DNA from: an uncultured cyanobacterium
GTDB lineage: Bacteria; Cyanobacteriota; Cyanobacteriia; Cyanobacteriales; CAWCAG01
DNA: 64,000 nucleotides
Assembly (NCBI GenBank): GCA_963803805.1
Contig: CAWDOD010000002.1
Span: forward strand, 992,001 to 1,056,000
Direction of reading: 5' to 3'
Shown: one piece after another, positions 40,371 to 57,238 of the stretch
How the letters are laid out: each line of letters opens with the position of its first letter
Numbering within the stretch: the stretch's first letter is position 1
Notes under the pieces: generated by a model
What the model saw: the letters and a program-made list of their open reading frames with translations, nothing else
Told to the model about the DNA's origin: nothing
Database searches by the model: none
Made by a program: the position numbers and the translations under genes

Positions 40371-40389
40371 AAACTATAAAGTATTGAAA

Positions 40390-41367
40390 ATGAAAGACAA
40401 ACTTTTGAGTATTAGACAAAATGGAAAAAAGGGTTATATCGACACTACAGGAAACATAGTTATTCCTTGCCAGTTTGATGGAGGTTCAAGTTTCTCTGAA
40501 GGCTTGGCCGCAGTGAAGGTTGAGGGCAATTATGGTTACATCAACACAAAAGGAGAATGGGCTATTCCTGCCCAATTTGGAAAAACAGTAGGTTTTAGTG
40601 AAGGATTAGCTCTAGTTGCCGTTGGTGATAAATATGGCTACATCAACCAGCAAGGAGAGCTAGTTATACCACCACAATTTGCCTATGAAGATAGTGTACT
40701 CTCTGGCATAGAAGATAATAGATTTTGTCAAGGAAGAGCTTTAGTTAAAGTCAATGATAAGTATGGCTATATTGACTATGAAGGTAACTTAGCTATTCCA
40801 GCACAATTCGATGATGTCTCTTCTTTTTCTGAAAGTTTAGCTGCTGTTAGAAAAGGAGAAAAAGTTGGCTATATAGATAAAAGTGGGCAAGTGGTTATTC
40901 CTTACCAATTTGATAACCCTGGAGTTATCAGCACCATAATAGAACATATTGGTTATAGTTTTCATGAAGGATTGGCTAAGGTAGTCATTGACGGTAAGTC
41001 AGGCTATATCAACCCTCAAGGGGAAATAGTTATAGAACCACAATTTGATGGCTCTTTAGCCTTTTATGAAGGGTTAGCAGGAGTTCAAGTTAGAGATAAA
41101 TATGGTTTTATCGACAGAACAGGGAAAATAGTTATAGAACCAAAATTTGACTCAGTTGCCTATTTTTCAGAAGGATTAGCAGGTGTAAGTACAGGTAAGT
41201 ATAGACGTAAATGTAGTGGCTACATTGATAAAACAGGGGAGATGGTTATACCTGCAAAATTTGATATAGCAGTAGGCTTCAAGTCTGGAGTAGCATCGGT
41301 GTGGATTGATTCAAAGGATGGATATATTAACAAGAAAGGTGAATATATTTGGGAACCAACGAATTGA
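40390..41367 (+). CDS. WG-repeat (KWG) protein, paralogue of 11943-12917
   Basis: MKDKLL start and GEYIWEPTN end are shared with the paralogue; repeated GYID..G..VI..QF...F.EGLA units. Confidence 0.92.
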   Translation: MKDKLLSIRQNGKKGYIDTTGNIVIPCQFDGGSSFSEGLAAVKVEGNYGYINTKGEWAIPAQFGKTVGFSEGLALVAVGDKYGYINQQGELVIPPQFAYEDSVLSGIEDNRFCQGRALVKVNDKYGYIDYEGNLAIPAQFDDVSSFSESLAAVRKGEKVGYIDKSGQVVIPYQFDNPGVISTIIEHIGYSFHEGLAKVVIDGKSGYINPQGEIVIEPQFDGSLAFYEGLAGVQVRDKYGFIDRTGKIVIEPKFDSVAYFSEGLAGVSTGKYRRKCSGYIDKTGEMVIPAKFDIAVGFKSGVASVWIDSKDGYINKKGEYIWEPTN

Positions 41368-41434: not shown

Positions 41435-41464
41435 GATTAATGTTGATCCTTTAAGTATGGAGTG
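41435..41464 (+). repeat. 30-bp direct repeat, copy 2 (duplicate of the priA end)
   Basis: Identical to 38759-38788; contains the stop codon of the cysteine desulfurase. Confidence 0.92.
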
Positions 41465-42638
41465 GTAACATTGGCGAGATTTGCTCCACTGCCTCAGAGA
41501 GAATTGCGGCTGATGTTGCTATTTCTTGTTCAGTAGTAAACTTTCCTAACCCTATTCTTAGGGAACCTTCAATTAAATCCTCTGCTAAATTCATTGCCCT
41601 GAGAACATGAGACGGGGCTACTAATCCAGAAGAACAAGCTGCACCAGTAGAAATAGCAATTTTGTCGCGAACTCTTGCAATGATAGCACTGTTGGGAATT
41701 TCAGGAATGGAAATATGGAGATTTCCGGCTAAGCGAGAATTAGTATCGCCATTAACAACTAAGTTAGGTATTTTTTCTTTTAACAACTGCTGTAATTTAT
41801 CTCGTAAAGTTGCGATCGCCGCTTCATCATCTTTCATTTCTAAGCCTCTTAACCGACAGGCTTCTCCTAAAGCAACAATACCAGGTACATTAAGAGTTCC
41901 TGCTCTTAAACCTTTTTGATGACCACCACCAAATATAATTGGTTCTAAATGGTTCCCTTTTTTGATAATTAATGCCCCTACTCCTTTCGGTGCATACAAT
42001 TTGTGACCAGAAATTGCTAGATAAGTAATTCCCCACCTTGCAAAATCAAGGGGGATTTTTCCTGCTGCTTGAGAGGCATCACAGAGGAAAGGAATGTTAT
42101 ATTCTTGGGCTATTTCAGCAATTTCTTGAACCGGGTAAATATTACCAATCTCATTATTGGCTGCCATGACGCATAACAGAGATAATCCTCCTTGGCAGGT
42201 TTGTTCAAGATGTTCTAAGTCTAATCTGCCTTGAGAGTCAACCTGGAGGCGAATAGTTTGAGCTAATCCTCTTTTTGCGAGGGCCTCGCAAGTGTCTAAA
42301 ACAGCTTTATGTTCCAGGGGAGACAAAGCAATGCGAGGTTTGTTCTTATCACTAAGACGTTTAAGAATAGTTCCTTGAATAGCTAAGTTAATACTCTCTG
42401 TTGCCCCAGAGGTGAAAACAACTTCTTTTGATGATGCCCCGACTAATTCAGCAACTTGGCAACGTGCCTCAGATACAGCCTTTGCTGCTTCGCCACCGTA
42501 AAGATGATCTATGCTGTTAGCATTACCAAATGCAGTAGTCATATAATATAGCATTCGGTCTGCCACTCTAGAGTCTACCGGAGTTGTAGAGTGATAATCA
42601 AGGTAGATTGGGGAATTTTCAGCAACGGTAGAAGTCAT
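41451..42638 (-). CDS. Cysteine desulfurase (IscS/DndA/SspA-like)
   Basis: YLDYHSTTP, FTSGATE, SGHK (PLP Lys), STGAACSSG (catalytic Cys). Confidence 0.93.
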   Translation of the reverse strand: MTSTVAENSPIYLDYHSTTPVDSRVADRMLYYMTTAFGNANSIDHLYGGEAAKAVSEARCQVAELVGASSKEVVFTSGATESINLAIQGTILKRLSDKNKPRIALSPLEHKAVLDTCEALAKRGLAQTIRLQVDSQGRLDLEHLEQTCQGGLSLLCVMAANNEIGNIYPVQEIAEIAQEYNIPFLCDASQAAGKIPLDFARWGITYLAISGHKLYAPKGVGALIIKKGNHLEPIIFGGGHQKGLRAGTLNVPGIVALGEACRLRGLEMKDDEAAIATLRDKLQQLLKEKIPNLVVNGDTNSRLAGNLHISIPEIPNSAIIARVRDKIAISTGAACSSGLVAPSHVLRAMNLAEDLIEGSLRIGLGKFTTEQEIATSAAILSEAVEQISPMLPLHT

Positions 42639-42662
42639 AACTTGATTTATCCTAGCTTTGGA

Positions 42663-43625
42663 TTAGCGTCCTTCAGTTTTGATTCGATAGAAAACTTCTG
42701 AATAATTAGGTACAGATAAAGCATAGCGATTAGGAAGAAAATAGAGTAGCCAACGCATCAAAGTTTGCCAAGCTCTTTCAGCATTAAACTCAGGAATACT
42801 CGCACAAGGAAGTAATCTTAATAAATCTCTTACTGCGCCAAATCTCTGGGGAGTTTCAACCAATACATCTACCTTTTGGACAATGGGTTTCTGAAGTAAA
42901 AGAGTGGCGATATAAGCCTCAAAAACTTCTCTGGATAAAGCAGGAATAAGTGGTAGAGATCGCAAGTCTGTTAAGGCTGCTGTTTTAGAGGCTGTAGATA
43001 ATTTTTCTGTCAGTCCAGAATAAGCCAAATATAAGTCTTCGGGATTACGGAGTGTAGGCAACCAAGCATTAGCTGCTACCAAATTGTCAGTAGGTAAAAC
43101 ATTGTTTAAAATTTCTAATTCGCTATGACCTTTAGTTTTGAGTTTAGGATATTTTTCTACTAACAACTGAACCCTATCATAAACTTGTTCATAAATATTT
43201 TTATCAACCAAAAGGCAGTTTTTTAGTAACTCATTTTCAAAGTTCTTGATAGTTGTTTCTTGAGTTGATACAGTTACTAAAACCTCTAAGTTCGGTTGAT
43301 TTGAAATTCCTAAAGCTTTAGCTGTTAAATTAGCTGAACCCACTAAACATTGCTCATCTGCTCGATAATATTTAGCGTGTAAATCGTTTCTTAGCCATAA
43401 AGAGCCATAACGATAAGATTGAATTATCAACCATACTTCTAAATCACTAACTCCAGTTACAATTTCTTCCGGCAACCAACGAGTAACACATTTGATCGTA
43501 ATTTCTGGCTTGATGTCATTGAGAATATTTTTTAAGACCGGAGCTTTGATAAAAGGAGCAGCAAGAACAATTTCTGTTTGGGCAGTTTCGCATAGTTTTT
43601 TGATTTCTAGTCCTATTGAATTCAT
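42663..43625 (-). CDS. Phospholipase D-superfamily (HKD) nuclease-like protein
   Basis: Single LHAKYYRAD...VGSANLT motif, with N-terminal APFI as in PLD-type restriction nucleases. Confidence 0.85.
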   Translation of the reverse strand: MNSIGLEIKKLCETAQTEIVLAAPFIKAPVLKNILNDIKPEITIKCVTRWLPEEIVTGVSDLEVWLIIQSYRYGSLWLRNDLHAKYYRADEQCLVGSANLTAKALGISNQPNLEVLVTVSTQETTIKNFENELLKNCLLVDKNIYEQVYDRVQLLVEKYPKLKTKGHSELEILNNVLPTDNLVAANAWLPTLRNPEDLYLAYSGLTEKLSTASKTAALTDLRSLPLIPALSREVFEAYIATLLLQKPIVQKVDVLVETPQRFGAVRDLLRLLPCASIPEFNAERAWQTLMRWLLYFLPNRYALSVPNYSEVFYRIKTEGR

Positions 43626-43683
43626 TGGCTTATTTCAGGTAATTTTGAGTATTTTACAATCAATAATCAAAAATAGGAGCTAA

Positions 43684-45507
43684 CTATTCATTATCTAAAA
43701 ATCTCCTCGCAATTCTCCCCCAATCTATCCGAGCATCTTGAGCATCATTTTTACGCTTATTATCTGGTTGTTCATCTTCATATCTAGCCCATGCCATTAA
43801 TAATAATTTTAAGCCATCTAAAGAGTTAATTAAGCGAGAACGTAAAGTATCTATATCGCCTTTTTCTACATCTTCTTCCAAAATTTCAACTAAGTTTTTA
43901 TAAGCAGGGTGATCAGTATTTAAAGTAACGATGATTGCTCCTCCTCTAGGTTTAACGGAGAAGAAAGCCGGACTATCAAGAGGAGCCGCAGCAAAGCTAT
44001 ATTTCAAGCCATTTTCTACTATTGTCGCTGCCAATAATTCCGCTTCTTTCTCAGTAACTCCTTCTTCCTTTAAAGTTTGTTGAATTACCTGTTTTCGCTC
44101 TTCTTTCGGTAGTTCTTCATCTTGATCGCTTTTACCTTTGTAGCCTTGTGATTTGCGTTCTCTAGTAACACTGGTAGCTGTTTTGATAGGCTTGTAAGGG
44201 TCATGACGTTTCTCGCTGGTACGAGTACCTTGAGTTTGTGCTTTGAGTAAGCGGCGAATAATGCTTAGTTGACTATTAATTTTATGAGCAAGTTCTAACA
44301 GGGGAAGTTTAGGATCTTCATCTTGGAGCAAGTCTCCTTTAAGTTGAGCAACTGTTTTTCCTTCCTCTAATAAAGATTCAATATCCAGTTGTAAAATTTC
44401 TGCAAAATTACGGGCTGATTGCTTGTTATTCGTCACTCCAAAAATATCATCGAGTGATGGAGGAAACTCAATTTCAATTCCCCACCATCGTTCTGTAGGA
44501 TCATAATTATTAACTAAGTTTTGGTCTAATTCTAATTCTCTTCCGGCACGGACAACAGAAACTCCAATGTTTTTAGAAGCGTGTTGTCCATGAGGCATAC
44601 TTCCAGGATTTTTCCCTGATTCTACTTGACGTGCTTCTTCTTTAGCGTAAGAGAAACGAACTTTTACATCATGTTCTTTCTCTTTAAATTTAATAGTAAA
44701 AGTTGCTTCGTAAGATGTCTCGCCCTGCCAAGGTTGAAACATGGCTTGATTATTAAAAGGTGCAGGGCAAGAGGTATTTTGGATTAAATAACCGGGATCA
44801 TTAGGAAGAGCATTTTTTTCATTAATGACACTGTATAACGCCTCTACATCAAATGTCACCATGCGAATTTTGACCTCATCGCTATTCAGGAATTTGCGGT
44901 ACATTCTACCAATCACAAATTCAGAATTATCAATTATTGCTTTTCCAGTTCGCCAAATGCAACGGTCTATTTTTGACCAAATTACTAATGTGCCGCTATC
45001 ACCAAAATTCTGACTTACTCTTGTCCAAATAGTCGGAATTTGTTTAGTAATAGGTTCAGGAACTTCAGTCATCCGACGACTTTTAATTTCATCTAAGTCA
45101 AGGTAAGTATAAAGAGCCTTTTCTATTCCACTTTGCCATGACCACACATCTACTCTTTGACATTGGGAAATAGAAGAAGATGGTAAACCCATACCAAAAC
45201 GTCCTATTCCAGTATGTTTATTTTCATCTAAATAAGTACCATTGCCGAATTGCAACGCTAGACGCAAAACATCAGCATTCATTCCGCTACCGTTATCTAA
45301 AACTGCTATTTGATGAATGCGAGATCGCCTTTGTTGTCCTACTTGCTGTTTCTTCTCACCGCATAAAAGTTCAACTTGAGCAGCACCTGCTTGAATGGCA
45401 TTATCCATTAATTCGGCGATCGCATAAGCCGCATTTTTATAGCCGTTATCTCGCATGGCTTGAACTGCAAGATGAGCCGGAACGATATCATGGGGGTTGG
45501 TAGTCAT
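43684..45507 (-). CDS. GHKL/MORC-type ATPase (HATPase_c_3)
   Basis: AIAELMDNAIQA, DNGSGM, GRFGMGL, SGT motifs. ATG at 45507 overlaps the helicase stop (ATGA). Confidence 0.85.
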   Translation of the reverse strand: MTTNPHDIVPAHLAVQAMRDNGYKNAAYAIAELMDNAIQAGAAQVELLCGEKKQQVGQQRRSRIHQIAVLDNGSGMNADVLRLALQFGNGTYLDENKHTGIGRFGMGLPSSSISQCQRVDVWSWQSGIEKALYTYLDLDEIKSRRMTEVPEPITKQIPTIWTRVSQNFGDSGTLVIWSKIDRCIWRTGKAIIDNSEFVIGRMYRKFLNSDEVKIRMVTFDVEALYSVINEKNALPNDPGYLIQNTSCPAPFNNQAMFQPWQGETSYEATFTIKFKEKEHDVKVRFSYAKEEARQVESGKNPGSMPHGQHASKNIGVSVVRAGRELELDQNLVNNYDPTERWWGIEIEFPPSLDDIFGVTNNKQSARNFAEILQLDIESLLEEGKTVAQLKGDLLQDEDPKLPLLELAHKINSQLSIIRRLLKAQTQGTRTSEKRHDPYKPIKTATSVTRERKSQGYKGKSDQDEELPKEERKQVIQQTLKEEGVTEKEAELLAATIVENGLKYSFAAAPLDSPAFFSVKPRGGAIIVTLNTDHPAYKNLVEILEEDVEKGDIDTLRSRLINSLDGLKLLLMAWARYEDEQPDNKRKNDAQDARIDWGRIARRFLDNE

Positions 45508-47141
45508 GGGTTTTTCCTCCAAACGTCTTCCCAATTGTGAAAAGCTGATGCTACTGAAGCAAAACCAGGGAGTTGATTGTCAACAACGGTAACAATTTCA
45601 GCAGTAGCATTTCCCCCAGCTTTAACTCCTCGAATAGCTCTTCCTACCATTTGGCTGTATAGTACGAGGGATTTAGTGGGGCGGGCAATAACTGCTGCAC
45701 TGATTTTTGGGGCATCGAATCCAGTGGTTAAAACGCCGTAGTTACATAAAACCTTGGTTTGAGAGCAATCACTTTTAAAGCTTTGAATCAGCCGTTCCCT
45801 TTCTGGTTTTGGAGTATCCCCGGTAATCGCCTCAGCATTCAAGCCCCTTAAACGCAAAATTGAGGCAATGAGTTGAGTATGGGCAACGGAAGTATTAAAA
45901 ACGATGATACGTTGATGATGATGGGCAAGTTTTTCTAGTTCGAGGATGATGCAGAGGTTTCGTTGTTCATCATCTGCTAGACGATTAAGAATAGATTGGG
46001 GAATGTCTAATTCGGTGTTAATCCGATTTAAGTCTTGGCTACTTAGTTCAATACCTGTTTCATAAAATAAGGAACGATAGTTAGCTTTAGCAAGGTATTG
46101 TTGATCAACTAAATAATCAATGGGGTTGTCATAACCTTCAATTTCTAAGGTAACTTTCTGTTGAGCGAAAAATTTAGCTAGTTGGGCATCGGTGTCAATA
46201 TCTGCCCAGGTGCGTCCTGGTGTGGCGGTTAATCCTAACAAAGCAGTATTTTCGTAGGGAACTACTAATGTATCTAATACCAGTTTATAAGTTTGGGCGA
46301 TCGCTTGATGAGCCTCGTCTATGATTACCAACGAACAACCTACACCTAATTGATTTATGAAGCGAATACTTTTTTTGGCAGCATTATAAACTTTCGCTAA
46401 TCCTGCTACTACTAAGCCATCTTGAGCCTGTTCTAAGTTTAAATCATGGCTACCCCAAAAGCGATAAGTTGAGATGGGGCGATTACCTAAATAATTCCAG
46501 GCTTTTTGAAATTCTGTAACGGCTTGTTCACAAAGTTCTTCGCTGTATGCTAACCAAATAACTAAAGTTGGTTCATTGTTTCTGAGGTGAGTTGCAATAA
46601 TATTCATTGCTGTGCGGGTTTTTCCTGCACCTGTAGGCATATGTAGTAAAACTCGCCGAGGTTCTTGTTGCAGATATTGTTCAACTTTTTTAGCTGCATG
46701 GCGTTGGTGAGTAAATAAAGAGTATTTAGGAGTATTTTCAATAGTTGAAGGAGTTTCAATTGTCTTTTTCTTTCTGGAAGGAAGGGGAGATTCAAAGAAG
46801 TTGAAAAGACATTTTCTAACTTCGTAATTGCCGCCAATTCTAATCTTTTTTAATGCTTGATAAGGGTCTCTATGTTCCGGTGCTTCTAATACAATAGTAA
46901 GGATTTTTGCTTGTTCTGGGGTGATTAAGTCAAATATTAAATTGCGTTTTTCTTTAGATAGTAATAGTTCTTCTGGTTTGTGGAGGCTTAAGAGAATTTC
47001 TCTGAGTTTACTAGGATGAATTAATTTAGGTTCCAAGAGTTTGAGCAATTGAAAGGTGGCACTACCTAATAATTGTTGTAGTGTTTTTTCATCTGCTTTT
47101 GATAGTAAGTCTTTGAAGTTCAAACTTAAAAATAATCCCAA
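45504..47141 (-). CDS. SF2 DEAH helicase (ResIII-like)
   Basis: MPTGAGKT, IIDEAH, GLTATP, TTGFDAP, QMVGRAIRG. Exact start uncertain. Confidence 0.92.
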   Translation of the reverse strand: MGLFLSLNFKDLLSKADEKTLQQLLGSATFQLLKLLEPKLIHPSKLREILLSLHKPEELLLSKEKRNLIFDLITPEQAKILTIVLEAPEHRDPYQALKKIRIGGNYEVRKCLFNFFESPLPSRKKKTIETPSTIENTPKYSLFTHQRHAAKKVEQYLQQEPRRVLLHMPTGAGKTRTAMNIIATHLRNNEPTLVIWLAYSEELCEQAVTEFQKAWNYLGNRPISTYRFWGSHDLNLEQAQDGLVVAGLAKVYNAAKKSIRFINQLGVGCSLVIIDEAHQAIAQTYKLVLDTLVVPYENTALLGLTATPGRTWADIDTDAQLAKFFAQQKVTLEIEGYDNPIDYLVDQQYLAKANYRSLFYETGIELSSQDLNRINTELDIPQSILNRLADDEQRNLCIILELEKLAHHHQRIIVFNTSVAHTQLIASILRLRGLNAEAITGDTPKPERERLIQSFKSDCSQTKVLCNYGVLTTGFDAPKISAAVIARPTKSLVLYSQMVGRAIRGVKAGGNATAEIVTVVDNQLPGFASVASAFHNWEDVWRKNP

Positions 47142-47192
47142 TTAACCATGAATTAATGAACCTGGATTTCAAATTTATTGTATAAAGTGCCT

Positions 47193-48803
47193 CTAACCAG
47201 AGAGAAACTCTAGAATTTCAGCTATTGCTACATTTTGAATTCTTCTTGCTTTAACTTCTCCGATTCCAGAAATTTTGTTAATAATTTCCTGCTCAGGAAC
47301 ATTTAAAACATCTTTTATTAAGTTGAACCCGTTTTCTGTGAGTTTTCTTTTTTGCCAATCTGTTAAACTCAAATCATTAATGGACTTTTGAAGTAAACCA
47401 TTAATAATTTCTTGTATTTTTGAATCGGATTCTAAACTTATTGGATTTGGTAGATTGAGAAAAGCATTGTTATTACGACTATATTCAGTAAATAAATAAT
47501 TATCTAAGTAATCAATTATTTGATTAACAAATTCTTTGGATTTTTCAAGAGCTAAAATACATCCTAACTTGATCTCGTAGCGTGTGCCTATGTTAGATGC
47601 AGTTGCTTTTATTCTTTCTCCGTTTTTTCTGACAATGCCTGTGTATTCTAAAAGTCTTAAAGACTCTTTGACAACTTCAGGCACATCTCTATGAATCCAG
47701 AAATAACAGGTTGATTTTTTATCACTTCTTCTGCGATCGTTCTTGTTCCGAGTTTCAGGAATTACTTTTTCTTCGATAAAGTTTCTTCCCCAATCGACAA
47801 TTTCTCTATGTCCTGTGTATCTTTCACCTAAAGCTGAATGTTCCGACCAAATTTCTGCAATATAAAAGTCCTTAATGAATTTTGATATTGTCTCCCATTT
47901 CAAATTGCTACATTTTTCTAATGCTCTTAATAATATTCTAGGATTTCCACTAGCAGAATAAGCAAGAATTTTAAAATTGCCTTTTTGCTCTTCTATTTTT
48001 TTTATTTTTTCTTGACTCGCTTGTTTATAAACAATCTCCTGCATTATATCTAAATAATCATTGTCTTTATTATTTCTCTCAAGACTTATTAAATCTGCAT
48101 CATGAGATATCTCAAATGAATCACCGAACGAAGTTACCCCAGGATAAACTGCTGCATTGCAATCTATATAAGGGGTTCTGAGTTTTCTAAAGAGAGAAAA
48201 AAACTCTCTTTGTTGTTGTGGTCTAAACATATGAATAGCTTCATCAAAAAGAAAGCATATTCTTTGAATTTTATAAAATTTACATATTTCTTCAATGATT
48301 GACAAAAAGTCTTCAGTTTCAGGGATATCAGAGATTACAGAACTATCAATCTCTTTATCTGAGTTTCGATAAGATTTTTCATATTTTTGCATTATATTGT
48401 TGAATTTCAACTCAAGAGATTCAGTACTTAGATTACTACCAAAGAGTAATTTTGTAGTGGGGACATTTTCTACTAGTAGCCCTTTATATGCAAGCTGCCG
48501 GTAAAGTTCTTTGCAAATTTTAGCCATCATCCAATTCGTAAATTGATCTGGATCATTTGTTTGGATAAGTGTAGTCCTTGATAAACTTAGATATATAGGT
48601 AAAACTTTTTCTGTACTATAATTTTCATTTAACTCTATTTGGCACATTTTTAACAAAAAAGTTTTACCAGTTCCTCTGCTACCTTCCAGAACAGTAGGAT
48701 TTTGTGATTTCAAAGCATGAATAATTTTTTTTTCTAAATCAGTCGAGACAAAAATTCGCTTTATTTCTTCATCTCTAATACTTTCAGTTCTAAGATACAA
48801 CAT
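47193..48803 (-). CDS. P-loop ATPase with C-terminal helix-hairpin-helix (alpha-CTD-like) region
   Basis: EGSRGTGKT, FLFDEA, SGNPR; C-terminal SINDLSL...ISGIGEVKA. AT-rich gene. Confidence 0.75.
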   Translation of the reverse strand: MLYLRTESIRDEEIKRIFVSTDLEKKIIHALKSQNPTVLEGSRGTGKTFLLKMCQIELNENYSTEKVLPIYLSLSRTTLIQTNDPDQFTNWMMAKICKELYRQLAYKGLLVENVPTTKLLFGSNLSTESLELKFNNIMQKYEKSYRNSDKEIDSSVISDIPETEDFLSIIEEICKFYKIQRICFLFDEAIHMFRPQQQREFFSLFRKLRTPYIDCNAAVYPGVTSFGDSFEISHDADLISLERNNKDNDYLDIMQEIVYKQASQEKIKKIEEQKGNFKILAYSASGNPRILLRALEKCSNLKWETISKFIKDFYIAEIWSEHSALGERYTGHREIVDWGRNFIEEKVIPETRNKNDRRRSDKKSTCYFWIHRDVPEVVKESLRLLEYTGIVRKNGERIKATASNIGTRYEIKLGCILALEKSKEFVNQIIDYLDNYLFTEYSRNNNAFLNLPNPISLESDSKIQEIINGLLQKSINDLSLTDWQKRKLTENGFNLIKDVLNVPEQEIINKISGIGEVKARRIQNVAIAEILEFLSG

Positions 48804-48822
48804 GTATTTATATACTCATAAA

Positions 48823-49542
48823 CTATAAAGGTCTTCCTAGTACAACTCTAGTGACTTTTAGATCATCAATATTATTAATTAAACATTCTTCTACCTCTCT
48901 GAGATTCTCTGGAGACAAATCTTGAGAAAATCTAATTACCAGTGAATAAAGTATTATTCTCGAAGTGTTATCACACAACTGTTTCCATGAATTAAATTCA
49001 TCTTGGTTGAATTTTATATGGGATTGATGAGTTTCCCAAGTATAATTACCTCCATGAATATACCCTGACAACTTACGATACGTATCCCTAGCTAATTTGG
49101 CTATAGTTTCATTTTCTTTTTTGCCTTTTTCATCAGGTTCTAAATCTGAGAATGCTCTTAACCAAGTGTCAGAAAAGATACCAATATCTTGGTCTATTAT
49201 CCTTTTCCAGGATATGTCTGCTAAACCTTGTTTCCATTTACGGAAATAAAACTCATCCGAGGAAAACAATATTCCAGATAAAGCCAATTCTAATACTAAC
49301 CTTAGTGAAGCAAATGCTTGTCTATAAAGTCCAGATGATGCTAAAAAAGCTGAGAATTGTAGCTCATACGCTACATTCTCTAAAACTTTCATTCCATTTC
49401 TTTGTGTTTCTAAAATGTTAGACCAGGTTAACAAATCACTTGACAGAACATGATATTTACCTAAGTCTACTTGAGTATGTGAGTCATTAATAATTGAGTT
49501 CAAGTTTTTACAAATTTCAAGATGATAATTTTTTAAATCCAT
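48823..49542 (-). CDS. Helical hypothetical protein, possibly HEPN-like
   Basis: YRQAFASLRLVLE and YRKLSGYIHG (Rx6H). AT-rich gene. Confidence 0.55.
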   Translation of the reverse strand: MDLKNYHLEICKNLNSIINDSHTQVDLGKYHVLSSDLLTWSNILETQRNGMKVLENVAYELQFSAFLASSGLYRQAFASLRLVLELALSGILFSSDEFYFRKWKQGLADISWKRIIDQDIGIFSDTWLRAFSDLEPDEKGKKENETIAKLARDTYRKLSGYIHGGNYTWETHQSHIKFNQDEFNSWKQLCDNTSRIILYSLVIRFSQDLSPENLREVEECLINNIDDLKVTRVVLGRPL

Positions 49543-49914
49543 AAATTATTTTAAACTAGACAAAAGAACTACCAAGATGTGTTTTACTTCAGGTTTATAG
49601 CTTTGAAATTCAACTTTTATTGAGTATCTGTAACACCCTTCTCTAATTGCTTCAAAATTACTACAACTTGATAAGCCTTATTCGGTAAAGGTAAGAGGCA
49701 AAAGAGGCGAGAAGTATTGTATTATGGTATTCCCTAGGAAATTAGCTTGAGAAAAAAGAACTCTCTCATTAGTTACCATAGTAAAGATAGGCCTTTCAGT
49801 ATCAGAGTTAGCCATTATCTAAGCTAAACTTGGCAGCCATTCAGAAAAAGAAATTAGCATCAGCAGTGCAAACCAAATGAAATTACCACTTTGAACATTT
49901 CAATTAGAAAGAAC

Positions 49915-50715
49915 TTACAAATGGCAAGCTAAACAAGGCAACTCCTCATCTTCTTCATCTAAAACCGACTCCAAAGCTTCAGATAAAGGCCGGTTAGGAG
50001 CAGCTTTTTTGTTCCTGCTCATTGCCTTTTCATGATTAGCAATAATCTCATCTTTGCGCTCCAAAAGTTGTAATAAAGTCTCTCCTTCTGTCCAAGTATA
50101 AGTTCTACCATCTTCATGATTTTGTTCATACTCAATAGCCTTAGCAAACAAATCTGGATGTTCTTGGGCTAGCATCACCCACTCATATTTACGCTGAAAA
50201 AAGCAAAAGAAACAGCCAGATCGGCTACGCCAGCGATAATAGTCTGGTAAGCCAATACCACTATCTTCTAAGATGTTAATAATATCTGCTTTAACCAATC
50301 CTCTTTCCTTAAAAGGAAACACAGGTTTAATATTCGGCTTAGTGGATAAATACCCTTCACGATTTTCATCGGCGCGAATGCCGACATAACTAATTGCTTG
50401 ATCATTGCCGACAAAATCTTCAAAAGGTTTGATTTTCATCTTCACCGTACACCAACGCATTTGAGGTGAAGGTAATAACCCATCATGGATCGTTAACCAA
50501 TGATCAAAACCCCTTTTTGCACTTAAATAGTGGATTTTAATACCTAAGCGGGCTTTAATACGCTCTAAGTATTCGTAAGTTTCTGGTAATTCCTTGTGGG
50601 TGTCACAAAAGAAATATTCCATCTCAGGGATTTCTCTATGTAACAAAATTGCTAAAGCTGTTGAATCTTTGCCCCCAGATAAACCCAGAATATGTCTAAC
50701 TTTTTTTGACAACAT
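49915..50715 (-). CDS. PAPS-reductase-family protein (SspD/DndC-like)
   Basis: PP-loop SGGKDS, RWCT..MKI.P, RSGCFFC, C-terminal CLAC. Confidence 0.9.
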   Translation of the reverse strand: MLSKKVRHILGLSGGKDSTALAILLHREIPEMEYFFCDTHKELPETYEYLERIKARLGIKIHYLSAKRGFDHWLTIHDGLLPSPQMRWCTVKMKIKPFEDFVGNDQAISYVGIRADENREGYLSTKPNIKPVFPFKERGLVKADIINILEDSGIGLPDYYRWRSRSGCFFCFFQRKYEWVMLAQEHPDLFAKAIEYEQNHEDGRTYTWTEGETLLQLLERKDEIIANHEKAMSRNKKAAPNRPLSEALESVLDEEDEELPCLACHL

Positions 50716-50806
50716 TGCGGTTGATTTTTATTTCAGAGCTATTACTTATTTTAAAGGTTATTTGCTTGTTTTTTCCTCAATTTTCTTTATTAATGATATT
50801 TTGTAT

Positions 50807-50966
50807 AATAGAAGAACTTAAGGAAGACTATACTATTTATGAGATAGCAGATGAGATTCTACCAATTTTAGATAAATTAGAAAAAGATGATCCAGATAAG
50901 GAGATTCGTACCAAAGTATCTCAGCTTTTAGAAATAATAGAACCTGATGAATGCTGGCATGACTAA
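50807..50966 (+). pseudogene. Opposite-strand C-terminal gene remnant (HEAT-like)
   Basis: …ILPILDKLEKDDPDKEIRTKVSQLLEII…* looks protein-like, while the upstream part of ORF 50706 does not. Left coordinate is approximate. Confidence 0.4.
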
Positions 50967-50978
50967 AGATTTATAAAC

Positions 50979-53900
50979 TCATCCTTGGAGTTCTTTATCT
51001 ATTTTGAAATCACGCTTTGTTTCAAGGTGAACAATATTTTCATTTGAACTAGTAGAGCCATTTAAAATTCTTTCTGTGAGCTTAGTAATTACAGCTTGTT
51101 GCAATTGGGAGTTTTCAGGTAATACATCTAAAACCTTTTCGACTAGTTTATTAACCTGGTTTTCTTGTTCATTATCAACCCAAACTAAGCGATGGGTTTC
51201 TTGCCCATCAGCGTGAGTTACGGTAAGGCGACGGGCTTCAAACCCAACTCCATTAACCGTTGCTTCTTTTTGTAAGGCTTCAAGATTTTGAAACCGTCTT
51301 ACCAAATCTGCAAGCTTACTCTCAAACTGAGTTACGTCTTTATCTGTCCAAGATTCGGCGGGTTTATCGGCTACAATCATCACTAAAGCTTCTAACCACT
51401 CTTTATCTCCTGGCTTCTGATCAGCAGCAGCTTTAGTAAAACGCCGTAAAGTAGGTTCAAGACAATTTTCGACTAAATAATTAGCTCTAACTCGTAAATC
51501 TTCCCGTAGTTTTTGCTCACCTCGACGAACGCCAAAAGCATTGTATAGTAAACTTTGACAATCATTCAACAAACTATCATAAGCTGTGTGTAATTCACGG
51601 ATAACTTGCCCCAGTTTTGCCCGTAATTTTTTGGCAATTGTGCCATCATCAACCTTCTCTGTACTAATAGCAGGTAAACCACAAGCTTGAGGTAGACTAG
51701 TGAACAAGAGTTCATCTGGTTCTACAGTTTCCTGTAAAGCTTCTAAAACAGCTACGGCTTCTGGACTTAATTGTTGCTTAGTTTGTTTTGTGTATTTAGG
51801 AAGTTTACTGGCAAACTGATACAAAGGTGTAACTACCGTTAGTAGAGTAGCATTACGCAGCTTTCTAGATTTTTTAGCTTTGGGATTGCGTAAAATAGTT
51901 TCTAGTTCTTTAAATACTTGAGATCGCAATCCTACAACTTCAAAATATTTGACTGCAAAACGAGAAGGGTTCTTTAGTAGTAATTCAAAATGCTCTATTC
52001 CTAAAATAGGAACAAAAGTACCATCTTGATAAATCCCAACATCATCAAGATGATATAGCAAGATTGCAGCTAATAAAATAGGAATTACCCCCTGTTTTAC
52101 TCCGTAGGGAGGAGCAGCTAAAATTTCATAAAGTTGAGCTAGGTTTTGAGGTTTATCTTTGGCAGCTAAACAAAACTTTTCAATAGCTTGCCACAATGTT
52201 TCTACGCCTGACTGTTTGCTGGGTGGATAAAAATTCTCTTGTTTATGAATTCCTGTTTCAGCTAAAAGAGAATAATAAATGGTAACTTCGGGACCATATC
52301 CTACTAACCCTAATTTCTCTTGATTAGAACACTCTATCATTGCTTCAATGAGTTGTCGCCTCGCCTTTGCTCCTTGGGAAGTAAGCTCTCTACGATTAAT
52401 TAGCTCATTTTGAATAATGGGAGTCTTGTGATAAATGCGATCACAAAGTTGAGAAAGTTTGGCGTTAAATTCGGTAATGTTATTAATGCTTTCCTGTTGT
52501 CCTTCAAACCAACAAATATTACTTTTAGCTGTTAATTTAAAAGCATTTTGTAGGGTTTCATAAAGTAAGTTTTCTGCTCCTACTAAGCGATAACGTACTT
52601 CTCTTCTTGCCACACCATCAGTTTGCAATTCTGAAGCAGTATTCTGAATTTCTTGCAGTGCTGCATACTCTCTAGTTCGGATACGTAGCAAATCTAATTT
52701 AGCAGCAGACAAGATAACTAAGGGCTTGCTATCAGCAGTAAATTGAGGAACAGAAGTAGGTTGATTATCATCTAGCCAATAAACAATTAATCCGTCACTT
52801 TCAGTATTAGAACAGGATAAATCTTTCAAATTACTAGAACTATCTAAGTAACAACGCTCAAAATAACGTAGAGTTCCTATTTGATAACTATGGCGCTGGA
52901 CTACTAAAGGTTTTAAAGGTCTAATTGAAGATAATAAACTGAATAAAGATGAGGAATTTTTATCACGATATTGTGATAGTTTACTGTCTATATTAAAATC
53001 AGAACCTTGCCAAATACGTAGTTCATTTAACTGACGACGGTGGGTAATTAAACCTTTGTGTAGTAGGTTATCAATGATTTGCTCCCAATATTTACGACTG
53101 TCGCTATCATCTGGACTATCACACATTGCTAAAGTAACTACATTACGGCTTGCCCTAGTTACCCCAGTAATTGTAACTAGGTTTAAGATGCCGATAGTTT
53201 TAAGAACTTTGAGAATATCAGGTTCAAGGTATTTAGCATCAGCAATTAAATCCTGAATTTCCACCCATCTTTGTAGATTAGGACGAGATGCTAACCCTAT
53301 TCCTGCTGCTTCTATAAAATAGTCATAAACTCTATCTAATTTCAAAGAAGGTAGAGCATTTGATTCTACTGTAACTTCTTCTAAAAACTTCTTAAATGAG
53401 TAGGGTTCCGAGCTAGTTAAAAAGGTAAACAGAGAGCGATCATTTTGAGCATAGCGATGACAAAGCGTGGGCAAAACCAAGGCAGTAATAGGATGTAATG
53501 GGTAGACTTTCTCGATTATTTCCCTACTTAATTCTTCGCTAACAAGAAGATTGTTCAGGGTGAAACACCATTCTTGGGCTTGATTATTAATAGCACAAGA
53601 GAGAGCTTCTACGTTTTTCTGATTAATAGCTTGGCCAATTAATCGCATCATTTGTCCTGCTGATTCAGTAAAAGCAATATCCTCAAATCTACCCTGAATC
53701 TTTGCCCATTCGTTGAGTTGAATAGAAGCTAATCTTTGACTATAATCAGCAAAAGCTTGATGAAGTATTCCTAAAATATAAATAGGAGTTTGATGATCTT
53801 TTGGTAGTTCAGCAAGTTGCTGCAATAAATATAAGTCTTCTGCCCCTTGATTATAAGCTGCATATTCTAAGTTTTTACCTAACTCATCAATTATCAAAAA

Positions 53901-54488
53901 TATGCCTGTCTTAGAAACTTTCGCTAGTTCTTGTACTAAAGCAGAAACTTCTTTGCCATCAATCTTATTTCCCCTCTCAATTTCTGCTTCTAAGTCTTGA
54001 ATTCGTGAAACAACTGCTAATTTATCACGCTTTGTAGGAGTCCAATATGTTTCTACTCCTCGAACTAAAGCCCGAATAATTGTCTGACTAACTGGTTCCC
54101 TTTGGGCAACACCAACTGCCTGAATATAACCTTTCGTGGGGATATTTAAGCTTAAAGCAAGATATTCAGAACTTTCTTTACCTAAAGCCGTTGCAGAGAT
54201 TTCTAATGCTAGCGATCGCATCTTGCTTTTTGAAGCTGCACATAAAGAAGCTAGATATAGGGCAAAGGCAGATTTACCAGTGCCATAAACGCTAGTTAAA
54301 GTCCACGCATTACTAGCACCTTCTTCTTGTCCCAGCCCTGGTAAAATGCGTCTTAGAGCATCAACAGACCTTTCAGTAAGGATATATCCTGCTAAGGCAT
54401 CTAATTGTTCTAAATCTCGCTCTAAATTAACCGAACGAGAGTAGCGACGATTGAGGCTGAAATATTGAGAAAGTGCTTTATTAGCCAT
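50979..54488 (-). CDS. Large P-loop ATPase (SspC/BrxC-like)
   Basis: RSVNLERD, YGTGKS Walker A, LIIDELGKNLEY Walker B, EWAKIQGRF, YPLHP, PPYGVK. Confidence 0.85.
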   Translation of the reverse strand: MANKALSQYFSLNRRYSRSVNLERDLEQLDALAGYILTERSVDALRRILPGLGQEEGASNAWTLTSVYGTGKSAFALYLASLCAASKSKMRSLALEISATALGKESSEYLALSLNIPTKGYIQAVGVAQREPVSQTIIRALVRGVETYWTPTKRDKLAVVSRIQDLEAEIERGNKIDGKEVSALVQELAKVSKTGIFLIIDELGKNLEYAAYNQGAEDLYLLQQLAELPKDHQTPIYILGILHQAFADYSQRLASIQLNEWAKIQGRFEDIAFTESAGQMMRLIGQAINQKNVEALSCAINNQAQEWCFTLNNLLVSEELSREIIEKVYPLHPITALVLPTLCHRYAQNDRSLFTFLTSSEPYSFKKFLEEVTVESNALPSLKLDRVYDYFIEAAGIGLASRPNLQRWVEIQDLIADAKYLEPDILKVLKTIGILNLVTITGVTRASRNVVTLAMCDSPDDSDSRKYWEQIIDNLLHKGLITHRRQLNELRIWQGSDFNIDSKLSQYRDKNSSSLFSLLSSIRPLKPLVVQRHSYQIGTLRYFERCYLDSSSNLKDLSCSNTESDGLIVYWLDDNQPTSVPQFTADSKPLVILSAAKLDLLRIRTREYAALQEIQNTASELQTDGVARREVRYRLVGAENLLYETLQNAFKLTAKSNICWFEGQQESINNITEFNAKLSQLCDRIYHKTPIIQNELINRRELTSQGAKARRQLIEAMIECSNQEKLGLVGYGPEVTIYYSLLAETGIHKQENFYPPSKQSGVETLWQAIEKFCLAAKDKPQNLAQLYEILAAPPYGVKQGVIPILLAAILLYHLDDVGIYQDGTFVPILGIEHFELLLKNPSRFAVKYFEVVGLRSQVFKELETILRNPKAKKSRKLRNATLLTVVTPLYQFASKLPKYTKQTKQQLSPEAVAVLEALQETVEPDELLFTSLPQACGLPAISTEKVDDGTIAKKLRAKLGQVIRELHTAYDSLLNDCQSLLYNAFGVRRGEQKLREDLRVRANYLVENCLEPTLRRFTKAAADQKPGDKEWLEALVMIVADKPAESWTDKDVTQFESKLADLVRRFQNLEALQKEATVNGVGFEARRLTVTHADGQETHRLVWVDNEQENQVNKLVEKVLDVLPENSQLQQAVITKLTERILNGSTSSNENIVHLETKRDFKIDKELQG

Positions 54489-54494
54489 TACGAT

Positions 54495-55430
54495 TTATAC
54501 CCACTGCCTCTGAAGACGATAATACTTATCTAGAATATCGTCTGCTAGTTGTTTTGGATTGCTTTTAAAAGAAAGTTGAATTAATCCTGCCGATTCAGAA
54601 ATATCAAGGAAATCATGAGACTGTGCTACTTTTTCTATAGCCTCACAGAGAACAGTTTCAGAAAGTTTGAATGCCAAACCGGGACTACCTATATCGTATA
54701 AGAGTCTCGATATTGCCACTTCTTCTGCACCTTTACTTGCCCAGCTAGCATATTCTAAGCAAGCCGCAACAATAATTTCGGGGGGTAAATTTGCTTTTGC
54801 CCCAGTTTTGAAACTATAACGTTTACTGCTTCGGGCATTTTGGATAATGCCTAATTGTTGAAAAGGACAATCAATAGAGTCTTCTTTAAAACTTGTTTTG
54901 CTCTCTTGTGAACTATACATCCGTAAAATACAAGAAATATCTTTTTTTAAAGAAGATTCAACTACGGTTTTACCTAAAGTGTTTTGCCATTCACTAATTT
55001 CTGTAAGTAACTCATCTGAAGTGAATTCGAGTTTCTTAGATATAAAAAAAGTAAAATACCAAGCAGCAGCTTCACAGGTTGGTTTAAGTAGATTCCAATG
55101 TAATAACCATAAAGAAGCCGGATCTTCAAGAAATGAATCCCAACCATGTTCACCAAAAAGCTGCTTGCCAAATTCAGTCGGGCGCTCTGCTTCTAAAACC
55201 TTAAAACTTCTGCACCAATAACGAATAGAACGTACCATGTTCTTACCCACTCCTAAACGAATAGGTGCATCTTCCCTTTGAAAGATATTTCCATCTTTTT
55301 CTGCCCAGTCAAATCCTTTTTTTAACCAACTAAAACGAGGATGAAAAGTTTCATGCCGAGCAAAGATAGGCTCTACTGGTGCAATTTCTAGAATATCACT
55401 ATCGGTTTGGGAAACAGTTGATGGGGGCAT
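54495..55430 (-). CDS. DUF4007-family protein (SspB-like)
   Basis: FARHETFHPRFSWLKKG, LGVGKNMVRSIRYW, D.FLED..SLWLLHW. Confidence 0.9.
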   Translation of the reverse strand: MPPSTVSQTDSDILEIAPVEPIFARHETFHPRFSWLKKGFDWAEKDGNIFQREDAPIRLGVGKNMVRSIRYWCRSFKVLEAERPTEFGKQLFGEHGWDSFLEDPASLWLLHWNLLKPTCEAAAWYFTFFISKKLEFTSDELLTEISEWQNTLGKTVVESSLKKDISCILRMYSSQESKTSFKEDSIDCPFQQLGIIQNARSSKRYSFKTGAKANLPPEIIVAACLEYASWASKGAEEVAISRLLYDIGSPGLAFKLSETVLCEAIEKVAQSHDFLDISESAGLIQLSFKSNPKQLADDILDKYYRLQRQWV

Positions 55431-55531: not shown

Positions 55532-56287
55532 CTACACAGCTAAAAAGCGATCAATTACTTCTTGACTCAACTCGCTTGTGGAACCAGAAGCGACAATTCC
55601 TCCTTTTTGCATCGCGTAATAATAGTCAGCTTGACGGACAAAATGTAAATGCTGTTCTACTAATAAAACCGAAATTCCGGTACTTTCAATAATACGACGT
55701 ACTGCCGCTTCAATTTCTAGGATAATGGAAGGTTGAATCCCTTCTGTAGGTTCATCCAAAACTAATAACTGAGGTTTCCCCATCAAAGCACGGGCGATCG
55801 CAAGTTGTTGTTGTTGCCCACCGCTTAAGTCTCCTCCTCGTCGAGAAAGCATGGTTTTAAGCACAGGAAACAAAGCAAAGATTTCTTCTGGTATTTCTTG
55901 CTTACCTTTCCTGCCTTGAGGGCGGGCTTCTAATCCTAATAATAAATTTTCTTCTACTGTCACGCGAGGAATTATTTCTCTACCTTGAGGTACGTAACCA
56001 ATACCCAATCTTGCTCTTTTATCAGTAGCAAGTTTGTCAATAGGTATGCCGGAAAAACTAATAGTTCCTATACGCTGTTTAAGTAAGCCAATAATTGTTT
56101 TTAATAAGGTTGTTTTTCCCACTCCATTACGGCCAATTAAACAAACCATTTGTCCTTTAGGAACACTTAAATCAACATTACGGAGAATATGACTTTCCCC
56201 ATAATAAACGTTCAATCCCGAAACTTGCAGCATCGGCGCCTGCGAAACTTCATCACTTACTGGAACATCAATATTAGTTTGAGTCAT
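55532..56287 (-). CDS. urtE: Urea ABC transporter ATP-binding subunit
   Basis: GRNGVGKT, LSGGQQQQLAIARAL, DEPTEGIQPS; last gene of the urt operon. Confidence 0.93.
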   Translation of the reverse strand: MTQTNIDVPVSDEVSQAPMLQVSGLNVYYGESHILRNVDLSVPKGQMVCLIGRNGVGKTTLLKTIIGLLKQRIGTISFSGIPIDKLATDKRARLGIGYVPQGREIIPRVTVEENLLLGLEARPQGRKGKQEIPEEIFALFPVLKTMLSRRGGDLSGGQQQQLAIARALMGKPQLLVLDEPTEGIQPSIILEIEAAVRRIIESTGISVLLVEQHLHFVRQADYYYAMQKGGIVASGSTSELSQEVIDRFLAV

Positions 56288-56381
56288 TTTATTTGCTATT
56301 TGCTAGTTGCTAATTATTTTTTCCCTGAAGTAGCAAGAAATATACTCTTAAAGCTAATAGCTAATAGCTAACAGCTAATTG

Positions 56382-57128
56382 CTATGTTTCTTCCCCTAAA
56401 TAAACCTCAATTACACGAGGATCATTTTGTACCTCATCCATGTTGCCTTCACAAAGTACTGAACCTTGATGTAAAACGCTTACTTGACGAGCAATTTGTC
56501 GGACAAATTCCATATCATGTTCAATAACAATGATAGAATGACTTTCCGCTAATGCTAATAGTAGTTCCCCCACATTTTCTGTTTCTTCATCAGTCAAACC
56601 AGCAACAGGTTCATCTACTAATAATAAGTCGGGGGATTGAGCAACTAACATTCCTATTTCTAAGCGCTGTTTTTCACCATGGGAAAGTAAGTCTGCGAGT
56701 AAATCAGCTTTGGATGTTAAACCAATAGTTTCCATTAAGCCAGTAACATTACGTTGTTCACTAGCTGAAGGACGACCAAAAAGAGTGCCAAAAACGTTTT
56801 TTTTGCGGTTACAAACTAAATCCAAATTTTCCCTGACTGTTAAGTTTAAAAGCACTCGCGGAGTTTGAAATTTACGACCAATACCTAAGCGAGAAATCTT
56901 ATCTTCTGAAAGCCGTTTTAAGTTGCGCCCTTTAAATAAAACTTGTCCTTCTGTAGGTTGAACTTTTCCAGTAATGACATCTAAAAAAGTAGTTTTTCCC
57001 GCCCCATTAGGACCAATAACCACTCGCAATTCTCCAGTATTTAAAGCAAGATTCAAGTTGTTAAGGGCTTTAAAACCATCAAAGTTAACTGTAAGATTTT
57101 GTATTTCTAAGATTTTTTCATTAGCCAT
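56382..57128 (-). CDS. urtD: Urea ABC transporter ATP-binding subunit
   Basis: GPNGAGKT, LSHGEKQRLEIG, VIEVYLG. Start placed at MANEK because the longer N-terminus is translated repeat DNA. Confidence 0.93.
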   Translation of the reverse strand: MANEKILEIQNLTVNFDGFKALNNLNLALNTGELRVVIGPNGAGKTTFLDVITGKVQPTEGQVLFKGRNLKRLSEDKISRLGIGRKFQTPRVLLNLTVRENLDLVCNRKKNVFGTLFGRPSASEQRNVTGLMETIGLTSKADLLADLLSHGEKQRLEIGMLVAQSPDLLLVDEPVAGLTDEETENVGELLLALAESHSIIVIEHDMEFVRQIARQVSVLHQGSVLCEGNMDEVQNDPRVIEVYLGEET

Positions 57129-57134
57129 TGGAAA

Positions 57135-57176
57135 TAATAAGTAATAAGTAATAAGTAATAAGTAATAAGTAATAGG
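57135..57176. repeat. Heptamer tandem repeat (TAATAAG)x5 plus one variant
   Basis: Directly visible between urtC and urtD. Confidence 0.9.
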
Positions 57177-57238
57177 TAACAACTGATAATTATTCATTGA
57201 TGCTTAACGGCAACGGCAAGCCGTACAATGATCATTTA

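Follow-up and report, generated by a model that had tools for sequence, protein, structure and literature searches.

Which restriction module serves a phosphorothioation operon that carries none of the known restriction partners? The question is raised by an island at positions 41451..55430 of the window, that is, of the whole 64,000-nucleotide stretch analysed here (contig CAWDOD010000002.1, from an uncultured cyanobacterium). The island consists of nine minus-strand open reading frames (ORFs) running in one direction; a sequence-only reading made beforehand had described nine co-oriented genes in this order and span, and the ORF list of the window bears it out. Four of the genes (sspB, sspC, sspD and sspA) form an SspABCD core, predicted to write a phosphorothioate (PT) mark on DNA. 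Two, orf239 and orf536, follow sspD. The remaining three, located between these and sspA, encode a helicase (hel), a GHKL ATPase (ghkl) and an HKD nuclease (pld), and it is in this trio that a further restriction partner of Ssp phosphorothioation, so far undescribed, may be seen. In a published survey, SspE, SspFGH or both were found at only ~16% of 2,678 sspBCD loci (PMC8092258), and most sspBCD loci are without a known restriction partner.

Judged by its protein models, the modification core is a plain member of the SspABCD family. As the reading had proposed, the PADLOC models for SspB, SspC, SspD and SspA are all matched, with E values of at most 1e-115; the SspC protein also matches the PADLOC BrxC model, more weakly (2.2e-141), and has no Pfam match, and the NifS and IscS matches of the SspA protein in NCBIfam stay under their cut-offs. 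The trio behaves differently in the catalogues searched, namely Pfam, PADLOC-DB v2 (2023) and NCBIfam release 20. PADLOC gave weak partial matches only (the helicase part of PbeA, 1.1e-29; the N-terminus of MzaB, 8.9e-19; ZacB/DrmC for the HKD motif, 2e-7), and every NCBIfam match is far under its cut-off. These blanks are meaningful, since the same PADLOC models catch true SspE (3.2e-274) and SspF, SspG and SspH (2.8e-237, 5.9e-219 and 0) in related loci. Public annotation names the homologs ‘ATP-binding protein’, ‘DEAD/DEAH box helicase’ and ‘phospholipase D family protein’. Two further claims of the reading thus hold in these catalogues: the nine proteins show no PglZ, BrxL, DUF262 or DndB/D/E match and no methyltransferase as best match, and the putative restriction module is distinct from the core's known partners, matching no catalogued system in PADLOC or NCBIfam beyond weak domain-level similarity. 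A literature search that extended to few subscription papers (Xiong et al. 2020, Nat Microbiol, not among them) and to no supplementary tables returned no prior description of the trio and no paper joining Ssp genes with a GHKL ATPase. In the accessible parts of their texts, a 2025 review names no PT restriction branches other than dndFGH/sspFGH, sspE and pbeABCD (PMC12707154), and a 2026 study of sspD neighbourhoods mentions BREX genes only (PMC12914056).

Several known systems share individual features with the island. SspABCD–SspE and SspABCD–SspFGH have the same modification core by PADLOC, and the principle is shared as well: a single PT writer is combined with restriction partners that can be exchanged, two of them at times being present together; relatives of the island carry SspE or SspFGH. 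Unlike these, the partner predicted here is composed of a superfamily 2 (SF2) helicase, a GHKL/S5 ATPase and an HKD nuclease with a winged helix-turn-helix (wHTH) domain. None of the nine proteins matches DUF262 (GmrSD_N) or DUF1524 (GmrSD_C), as an SspE would, and the genome's three DUF262 genes lie outside the island. A DUF262 (GmrSD_N) match within a 606-amino-acid (aa) open frame is found at G000:C2:1057127-1057594 of this genome, ~1.1 kb past the window end; being ~10 kb upstream of sspB behind ABC-transporter genes, it is not adjacent and was not counted as SspE. SspFGH, which includes a Walker-A protein and an FtsK-like protein (PMC8092258), has no match among the island proteins (for the helicase, among the best 25 of 40 families). 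PbeABCD is likewise linked to PT and likewise combines an HKD nuclease with an SF2 helicase; in PbeA the two are fused, and the partners of this fusion are a DndE-like protein and an ABC ATPase of the CxC type (PMC10853773, PMC6459918). The island lacks both of these partners and has a GHKL ATPase in the ATPase place; its HKD protein is a separate gene, only the helicase part of PbeA is matched (model positions 235-627 of 672), and PbeB, PbeC and PbeD are not. BREX type 4 requires PglZ and BrxL (PMC12839542); the island has neither, and no PglZ match was found in the 97%-complete genome. The MzaB match reaches 76.9 bits against an NCBIfam equivalog cut-off of 850 and covers the N-terminal 200 residues only, DrmC reaches 24.7 bits against 133 with no DrmA or DrmB match, which removes DISARM, and for Zorya and Hachiman-type systems the matches are weak and partial or lacking and the partner genes are missing.

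The main evidence for a partnership comes from gene neighbourhoods. A scan of one genome per species gave 193 GHKL relatives, and 72 loci were kept and searched by local tblastn with the nine window proteins; 41 of the loci are well flanked, with at least 8 kb on both sides. The helicase gene adjoins the GHKL gene in 65 of the 72 loci. SspB/C/D are found at a coverage of at least 50% in 44, and so is SspA, in keeping with the earlier suggestion that a desulfurase ends the operon. Among the well-flanked loci, 28 of 41 have SspB/C/D, 33 have at least one Ssp gene and eight have none. The Ssp-linked loci are spread over seven phyla, several gene orders and plasmids, a spread that is a stronger argument than the counts. 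Three loci (L036, L046, L058) show the compact order SspB-SspC-SspD-Hel-GHKL-PLD-SspA, in which hel directly follows sspD; two more (L060, L067) have the same order without a detected SspA. Loci from Bacteroidota, Ignavibacteriota and Proteobacteria have the two blocks inverted or in another order, but side by side all the same (L014, L015, L062, L064, L069, L070).

Plasmids provide further arrangements, with a GHKL relative on 13 of them. On Planktothrix agardhii p2 the genes follow the order seen in the window, the two extra genes among them, until the record ends after PLD (SspA is not in view); one additional nuclease-like gene stands between GHKL and PLD. In Roseobacter litoralis pROLI83, Hel-GHKL-PLD (GHKL at 42% identity) faces SspA-B-C-D and a DGQHR protein, and in Agrobacterium pAtCFBP7129b a Hel-GHKL-endonuclease set (GHKL at 41%) lies directly upstream of SspF-G-H, which in turn faces SspA-B-C-D. 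The reading had seen the trio and the core together in one island; their co-occurrence has now been found in other genomes, phyla and plasmids and in several gene orders, and on this evidence the trio can be regarded as a conserved Ssp partner.

Co-occurrence can also be followed across whole genomes. In a sample of 401 cyanobacterial genomes, of which 13 have the GHKL gene and 37 an SspD match, the GHKL gene is present in nine of 21 genomes with a canonical SspD (E ≤1e-100) versus four of 364 without an SspD match; two of these last four matches are fragments. The same sample includes family f35, whose 16 genomes (1.7-2.3 Mb) each carry one to six SspD-like PAPS-reductase genes (E 1e-57 to 1e-90) and no GHKL gene; these genes are a multi-copy paralog family. 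A Bacteroidota sample held one full-length GHKL ortholog in 301 genomes, namely the seed, which was not enough to repeat the co-occurrence test there. A reverse survey started from SspD: of the 80 closest SspD loci, 48 extend at least 8 kb downstream, and among these GHKL is found in 18, a DndB-like gene in 11, SspE in nine, and neither GHKL nor SspE in 25. Near the island's SspD clade, helicase-GHKL is thus the commonest partner, ahead of SspE. When pairwise identities are compared, GHKL gives a Spearman rho of 0.88 with SspD, 0.76 with SspC and 0.74 with SspB; published values are 0.582 for DndCD and DndFGH and 0.107 for DndCD and PbeAC (PMC6459918). A quick tree places nearly all cyanobacterial GHKL sequences together, with the proteobacterial ones scattered.

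The distribution of the nuclease gene follows that of the Ssp genes. Eleven of the 12 PLD-positive well-flanked loci have SspB/C/D, and the twelfth (L037) shows an SspD fragment at the locus edge, only a fragment because a 6.3-kb insertion separates hel from ghkl. The inserted DNA of this Pleurocapsa metagenome-assembled genome (MAG; L037 3888-12661) encodes a 1328-aa TPR-CHAT protein and two unknown genes. Seven well-flanked Ssp-less loci with full-length Hel and GHKL, from Microcoleus and one Nostoc, are all without PLD, and in the three such Microcoleus/Nostoc genomes searched no SspD was found anywhere. In the reverse survey, none of the four loci with canonical SspE and GHKL has PLD, as against eight of the 14 GHKL loci without SspE. 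Elsewhere, an HNH or another endonuclease stands in the PLD position. Hel and GHKL would accordingly form a motor-plus-clamp core with an exchangeable nuclease. That PLD is kept only alongside Ssp genes is suggestive of a restriction–modification logic, in which the nuclease would be tolerated only together with the PT writer.

What the three proteins might do can be gauged from conserved residues and predicted folds. In hel, the Walker A, DEAH, TPGR and QMxGRxxR motifs are invariant among 23 sequences, and a sequence search of the PDB places RadD (6jde, 2.7e-22), SauUSI (7clg) and Rad25/XPB as the nearest solved relatives. The GHKL protein is well conserved, with a mean column identity of 60% over 35 sequences from seven phyla. 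Its model (mean predicted local distance difference test score, pLDDT, 82.4) matches SMCHD1 (Z 20.4), MORC3 (19.2), MutL (18.3) and MORC2 (17.8) over residues ~10-437, and Foldseek agrees; for the C-terminal part, residues ~440-616, no standout fold match was obtained. PDB sequence searches with ghkl and pld returned nothing useful. The likely start codon of ghkl, the ATG at 45507, overlaps the hel stop codon as ATGA and is preceded by GGAGG eight bases upstream; close homologs are 607 aa long in public gene calls. Through this overlap hel and ghkl appear to be translationally coupled.

For pld, the Pfam match to PLDc_2 (3.5e-5, 24.1 bits) falls under the cut-off of 27, and the HKD assignment is based instead on an invariant residue set (H83, K85, S97, A98, N99, N112 and E114 in 24 aligned relatives) and on fold matches to SauUSI, NucT and Nuc. 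The model (pLDDT 90.6) has two parts. Residues 1-150 form a predicted Nuc-type nuclease domain, with matches to SauUSI (Z 15.8), NucT (15.2), Nuc (14.9), BfiI (13.8) and NgoAVII (12.1). Residues ~180-318 form a winged-helix part of moderate likeness to ArsR-type wHTH domains (Z 7-8), N.BspD6I (7.2), FokI (6.7) and BrxA (6.6), which may reflect a common arrangement with the wHTH arrays of FokI, BrxA and N.BspD6I. As a homolog of SspB, this domain was rejected (hhalign probability 0.2%). The nuclease fold and catalytic set are shared with SauUSI, BfiI and NgoAVII; BfiI also has an HKD domain followed by a DNA-binding domain, and SauUSI pairs its nuclease with an SF2 motor, as in the trio. Unlike in these enzymes, motor, clamp and nuclease are three proteins here, and a known target-recognition domain for modified bases is lacking. 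GHKL and PLD are a single ORF in two cases, L037 (885 aa) and P0142. A full-length PLD-wHTH homolog also occurs behind a Prim-Pol domain (PF09250), at residues 571-882 of an 886-aa metagenome protein (P0141).

There is a precedent for such a combination. Iyer, Abhiman and Aravind (2008) described prokaryotic MORC-type ATPases together with Rad25-like SF2 helicases and nucleases, including HKD nucleases, as predicted restriction modules (PMC2292703). Their MORC and paraMORC operons contain a GHKL+S5 ATPase, a Rad25-like SF2 helicase and a nuclease, as the trio does, and were predicted to carry out ATP-driven restriction coupled to an epigenetic mark; the island has the same defining parts, a GHKL+S5 ATPase with a linked Rad25-like SF2 helicase and nuclease. 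Those operons, however, pair with DNA methylases and have the HKD domain fused to the helicase (PMC2292703), whereas the island has SspABCD as presumptive mark writer, no methyltransferase, and a separate HKD protein with its own wHTH domain. The likeness of ghkl to MORC is one of profile, fold and gene context, not a placement in one of the named families MORC or paraMORC1-5.

If this comparison is pursued, the trio gains a wider meaning, to which we give about an even chance: that a helicase, a MORC/MutL-like GHKL clamp and an exchangeable nuclease constitute a widespread further class of PT-dependent restriction beside DndFGH/SspFGH, SspE and PbeABCD, that bacterial MORC-like ATPases read a backbone mark, and that the sspD–hel junction is a swap slot that recruits other defence cassettes. 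One such cassette would be a so far undescribed pair, an ORC/Cdc6-like ATPase with an Rx6H (HEPN-like) protein, which is found from cyanobacteria to Methanosarcina. The helicase-GHKL-PLD module can be called widespread, as judged from its PLD-wHTH family, which has 1,063 representatives at E ≤1e-30 (clusters at 50% identity). A considerable fraction of the ‘orphan’ PT systems would find an explanation in a named helicase-GHKL module, which would in addition provide a tractable bacterial model in which a MORC-type ATPase couples an epigenetic mark to DNA processing, and the Ssp operon would join the systems whose nested genes reveal new defence cassettes.

The working model treats the island as one three-layer defence unit, consisting of a PT writer, a PT-coupled, ATP-driven restriction trio and a nested cassette; it may as readily prove wrong as right. 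SspA, SspB, SspC and SspD would write a single-strand PT mark on the host chromosome, expected as C-ps-C in CCA or as another PT dinucleotide, with SspA supplying sulfur, SspD transferring it, SspC contributing ATPase activity and SspB binding DNA, roles that follow from family membership and published Ssp biochemistry. The helicase, the GHKL+S5 ATPase and the HKD-wHTH nuclease would form an ATP-driven restriction complex that reads the PT mark and so distinguishes self from non-self. In this complex the helicase would translocate along DNA, the GHKL dimer would act as an ATP-gated clamp or switch coupling mark recognition to the nuclease, and a PLD dimer would cut DNA without the mark, self DNA being protected by PT. 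The orf239-orf536 cassette probably adds a separate defence line. Complex formation, PT dependence, the direction of discrimination and antiphage activity are what we infer; our choice of direction reflects that the nuclease gene persists only together with Ssp genes. The reading's central proposal, a PT self mark paired with a different restriction module, stands as regards the core, the unmatched trio and their linkage, while the PT dependence of restriction is put forward from genomic linkage.

A number of observations speak against this model. The preference for protection by PT over activation by PT is indirect and derives from one pattern. Counts and correlations overstate the support, since related genomes are not independent. 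In the seven Ssp-less loci Hel and GHKL are intact, which shows that the pair can be kept without PT. Conversely, SspBCD and GHKL occur with no PLD detected by tblastn in 17 of the 41 well-flanked loci; the helicase is incomplete or absent in 11 of these 17, so decay is common. In 18 loci, mostly from Nostocales, an HTH+HNH_4 gene (cluster c1, 376-465 aa) displaces the 5' part of hel. In the sole c1 locus read (L009 7563-10028), Walker A is gone and stop codons stand ahead of the hel remnant; in most c1 loci the downstream GHKL is intact and PLD is absent. Finally, the PADLOC-DB used is the 2023 edition, and a more recent catalogue name for the trio could exist.

The survival of Hel and GHKL without Ssp genes in Microcoleus would suit a trio that senses PT rather than being held in check by it. 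Host PT would then stimulate the ATPases, the nuclease would attack incoming DNA, and without PT the machine would be inert and harmless. SspE acts in this manner within the same system family (PMC8092258, PMC12707154), and trio genes stand beside SspE in the same operon in five loci (L003, L005, L007, L027, L018). A harmless nuclease, however, should persist after the loss of Ssp, and PLD is found in none of the seven Ssp-less full-helicase loci; its absence where canonical SspE and GHKL occur together suggests alternative nucleases and not one shared mechanism. A PT-sensing trio is therefore considered unlikely. The same seven loci, the tendency of defence genes to cluster and nest within each other (10.1101/2024.01.29.577857) and the DNA-binding-like domain of the PLD protein itself would also be compatible with a self-sufficient MORC-type restriction or abortive system that merely travels with Ssp and has no PT dependence. 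Against this, the trio lies inside the modification operon, between sspD and sspA, with gaps of 24-58 nt and the ATGA overlap; the linkage is kept over seven phyla, plasmids and inversions; PLD was never found without Ssp; GHKL co-diverges with SspB/C/D, as the rho values of 0.74-0.88 indicate; and no methyltransferase or other self-marking gene is alongside. Such independence is distinctly improbable on these grounds.

The embedding of the trio among modification genes, together with the resemblance of the GHKL+S5 fold to MutL (Z 18.3), might instead point to a role in modification itself, as a machine of MutL/UvrD/MutH type for nick processing or for the loading of SspBCD. This is very hard to reconcile with the distribution of the GHKL gene, which is absent from 12 of the 21 cyanobacterial genomes with canonical SspD and from 30 of the 48 SspD loci, and with the finding that sspBCD plus iscS or sspA need no such genes to modify DNA in E. 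coli (PMC8092258). The nuclease, moreover, is exchangeable (PLD, HNH or another endonuclease), which is typical of effectors; a modification role accordingly has only a slim chance of being right.

Features of the island, listed from the 5' end of the operon to its 3' end (window coordinates; products are predictions, and values without a unit are E values)
Feature	Positions	Strand	Predicted product or role	Length and supporting matches
sspB	54495..55430	-	DUF4007 DNA-binding/target-recognition subunit	311 aa; Pfam DUF4007 6.7e-100; PADLOC SspB 2.9e-121
sspC	50979..54488	-	Large ATPase, BrxC/PglY-related	1169 aa; PADLOC SspC E=0, 1535.9 bits, model 1-1104
sspD	49915..50715	-	PAPS-reductase-type sulfur transferase	266 aa; PADLOC SspD 1.2e-115; Pfam PAPS_reduct 8.4e-14
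Non-coding gap	49543..49914	-	sspD-side junction of variable slot	372 bp; no minus-strand ORF of at least 80 aa
orf239	48823..49542	-	First gene of embedded cassette	239 aa; no Pfam, PADLOC or NCBIfam match
orf536	47193..48803	-	ORC/Cdc6-like AAA+ ATPase, second cassette gene	536 aa; Pfam PF24389 1.7e-14
hel	45504..47141	-	SF2 (RadD/Rad25-like) DEAH helicase	545 aa; ResIII 1.8e-24; Helicase_C 4.1e-15; DEAD
ghkl	43684..45507	-	MORC/MutL-like GHKL+S5 ATPase	HATPase_c_3 3e-21; open frame to TTG 45534 = 616 aa
pld	42663..43625	-	Nuc-type HKD nuclease with C-terminal winged-helix domain	320 aa; PLDc_2 sub-threshold; invariant HKD set
sspA	41451..42638	-	Dedicated cysteine desulfurase, last in operon	395 aa; PADLOC DndA 3.8e-138, SspA 2.4e-137; Aminotran_5 5e-72

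The two genes between sspD and hel are best regarded as a separate mobile two-gene cassette, outside the conserved module. Their AT-rich character, noted in the reading, is borne out by a guanine-plus-cytosine content of 0.298-0.326 in the 1-kb windows over 46500-49499, compared with 0.34-0.42 elsewhere in the island. An orf536 homolog is present in only one of the 72 GHKL loci (L034). A separate scan identified 11 loci with orf536 relatives, and in all 11 an orf239 homolog lies immediately upstream (L081-L091); these loci come from cyanobacteria, Acidobacteriota, Planctomycetota, Verrucomicrobiota, Myxococcota, a deltaproteobacterial MAG and a Methanosarcina MAG. The cassette directly follows SspD in two of them (L081, L082), and in the others it is found near integrases, recombinases, HsdM genes and Y-family polymerases. 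The reading had taken the island as one gene set; all nine genes are present, but the AT-rich pair is thus likely to be an independent nested cassette and not part of the module. In one of the two SspD-linked loci (L082 1-15599, an Allocoleopsis MAG), SspC-SspD-SspE-Fic-orf239-orf536 run head to tail, with BrxL and a PglZ-like gene just downstream on the opposite strand, an arrangement that puts Ssp-type and BREX-type-4-type parts side by side.

As to the cassette proteins, orf536 matches PF24389 (ORC-CDC6-like) with 53.9 bits at a cut-off of 27, and its nearest ESM Atlas clusters are ORC-CDC6 family ATPases (score 0.99; PF24389 in 88-96% of members). In 15 sequences of the orf239 family, Y155, R156, S159, H163 and G164 are invariant, giving an Rx6H pattern of the form YR..S...HG. 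The 15 members have weak DUF5677/DUF6988 matches only, and no HEPN Pfam family is matched at E values up to 1; orf239 is possibly HEPN-like. The cassette has no match among the PADLOC models, those for HEC/PDC included. In its organisation the island resembles the systems with embedded defence genes described by Payne et al. (2024), Hma among them: there, too, a multi-gene operon with a helicase and an ATPase harbours foreign cassettes of variable content that are inserted between its genes.

What lies between sspD and hel differs among the relatives. The slot contains SspE in the five loci named above, a DndB-like gene with a small partner in six (L022, L035, L038, L031, L045, L063), a second GHKL ATPase, in some cases with a GIY-YIG protein, in five (L008, L072, L054, L041, L061), NsnA and an HEPN protein in L037, and an Mrr-type nuclease in L066; the HTH+HNH gene of cluster c1, described above, likewise counts among the slot contents. 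In Xenococcus sp. PCC 7305 (L052 8821-9981), a DACNK + DAC (diadenylate-cyclase-like) gene takes the place of the helicase between sspD and ghkl; GHKL, PLD and SspA follow.

Both flanks of the island are housekeeping-type genes. Upstream are Liv-type ABC ATPase genes (55532-57197, Pfam), and downstream is a WG-repeat gene on the plus strand (40384-41367) with eight Pfam repeat matches, whose internal repeats are the direct-repeat families D1 and D2. Repeat and tRNA checks found no flanking repeats and no tRNA genes at the island borders. Scans for promoter-like and terminator-like sites gave numbers at chance (41 seen against 45.3 expected, and 9 against 9.5); a promoter-like match in the 372-bp gap, at 49575-49548, is not above chance either. 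Elsewhere in the same genome, at G000:C1:108564-109361 (L079 9424-10386), lies a second, divergent DUF4007/SspB-like gene (PADLOC SspB 1e-36). Its neighbours encode a C5 cytosine methyltransferase and a protein that matches MzaA in its C-terminal part (6.2e-51); a TnpB/Cas12f-like gene lies downstream, and no SspC or SspD is nearby. This locus may represent a methylation-based system in which the DUF4007 DNA-binding subunit has been reused.

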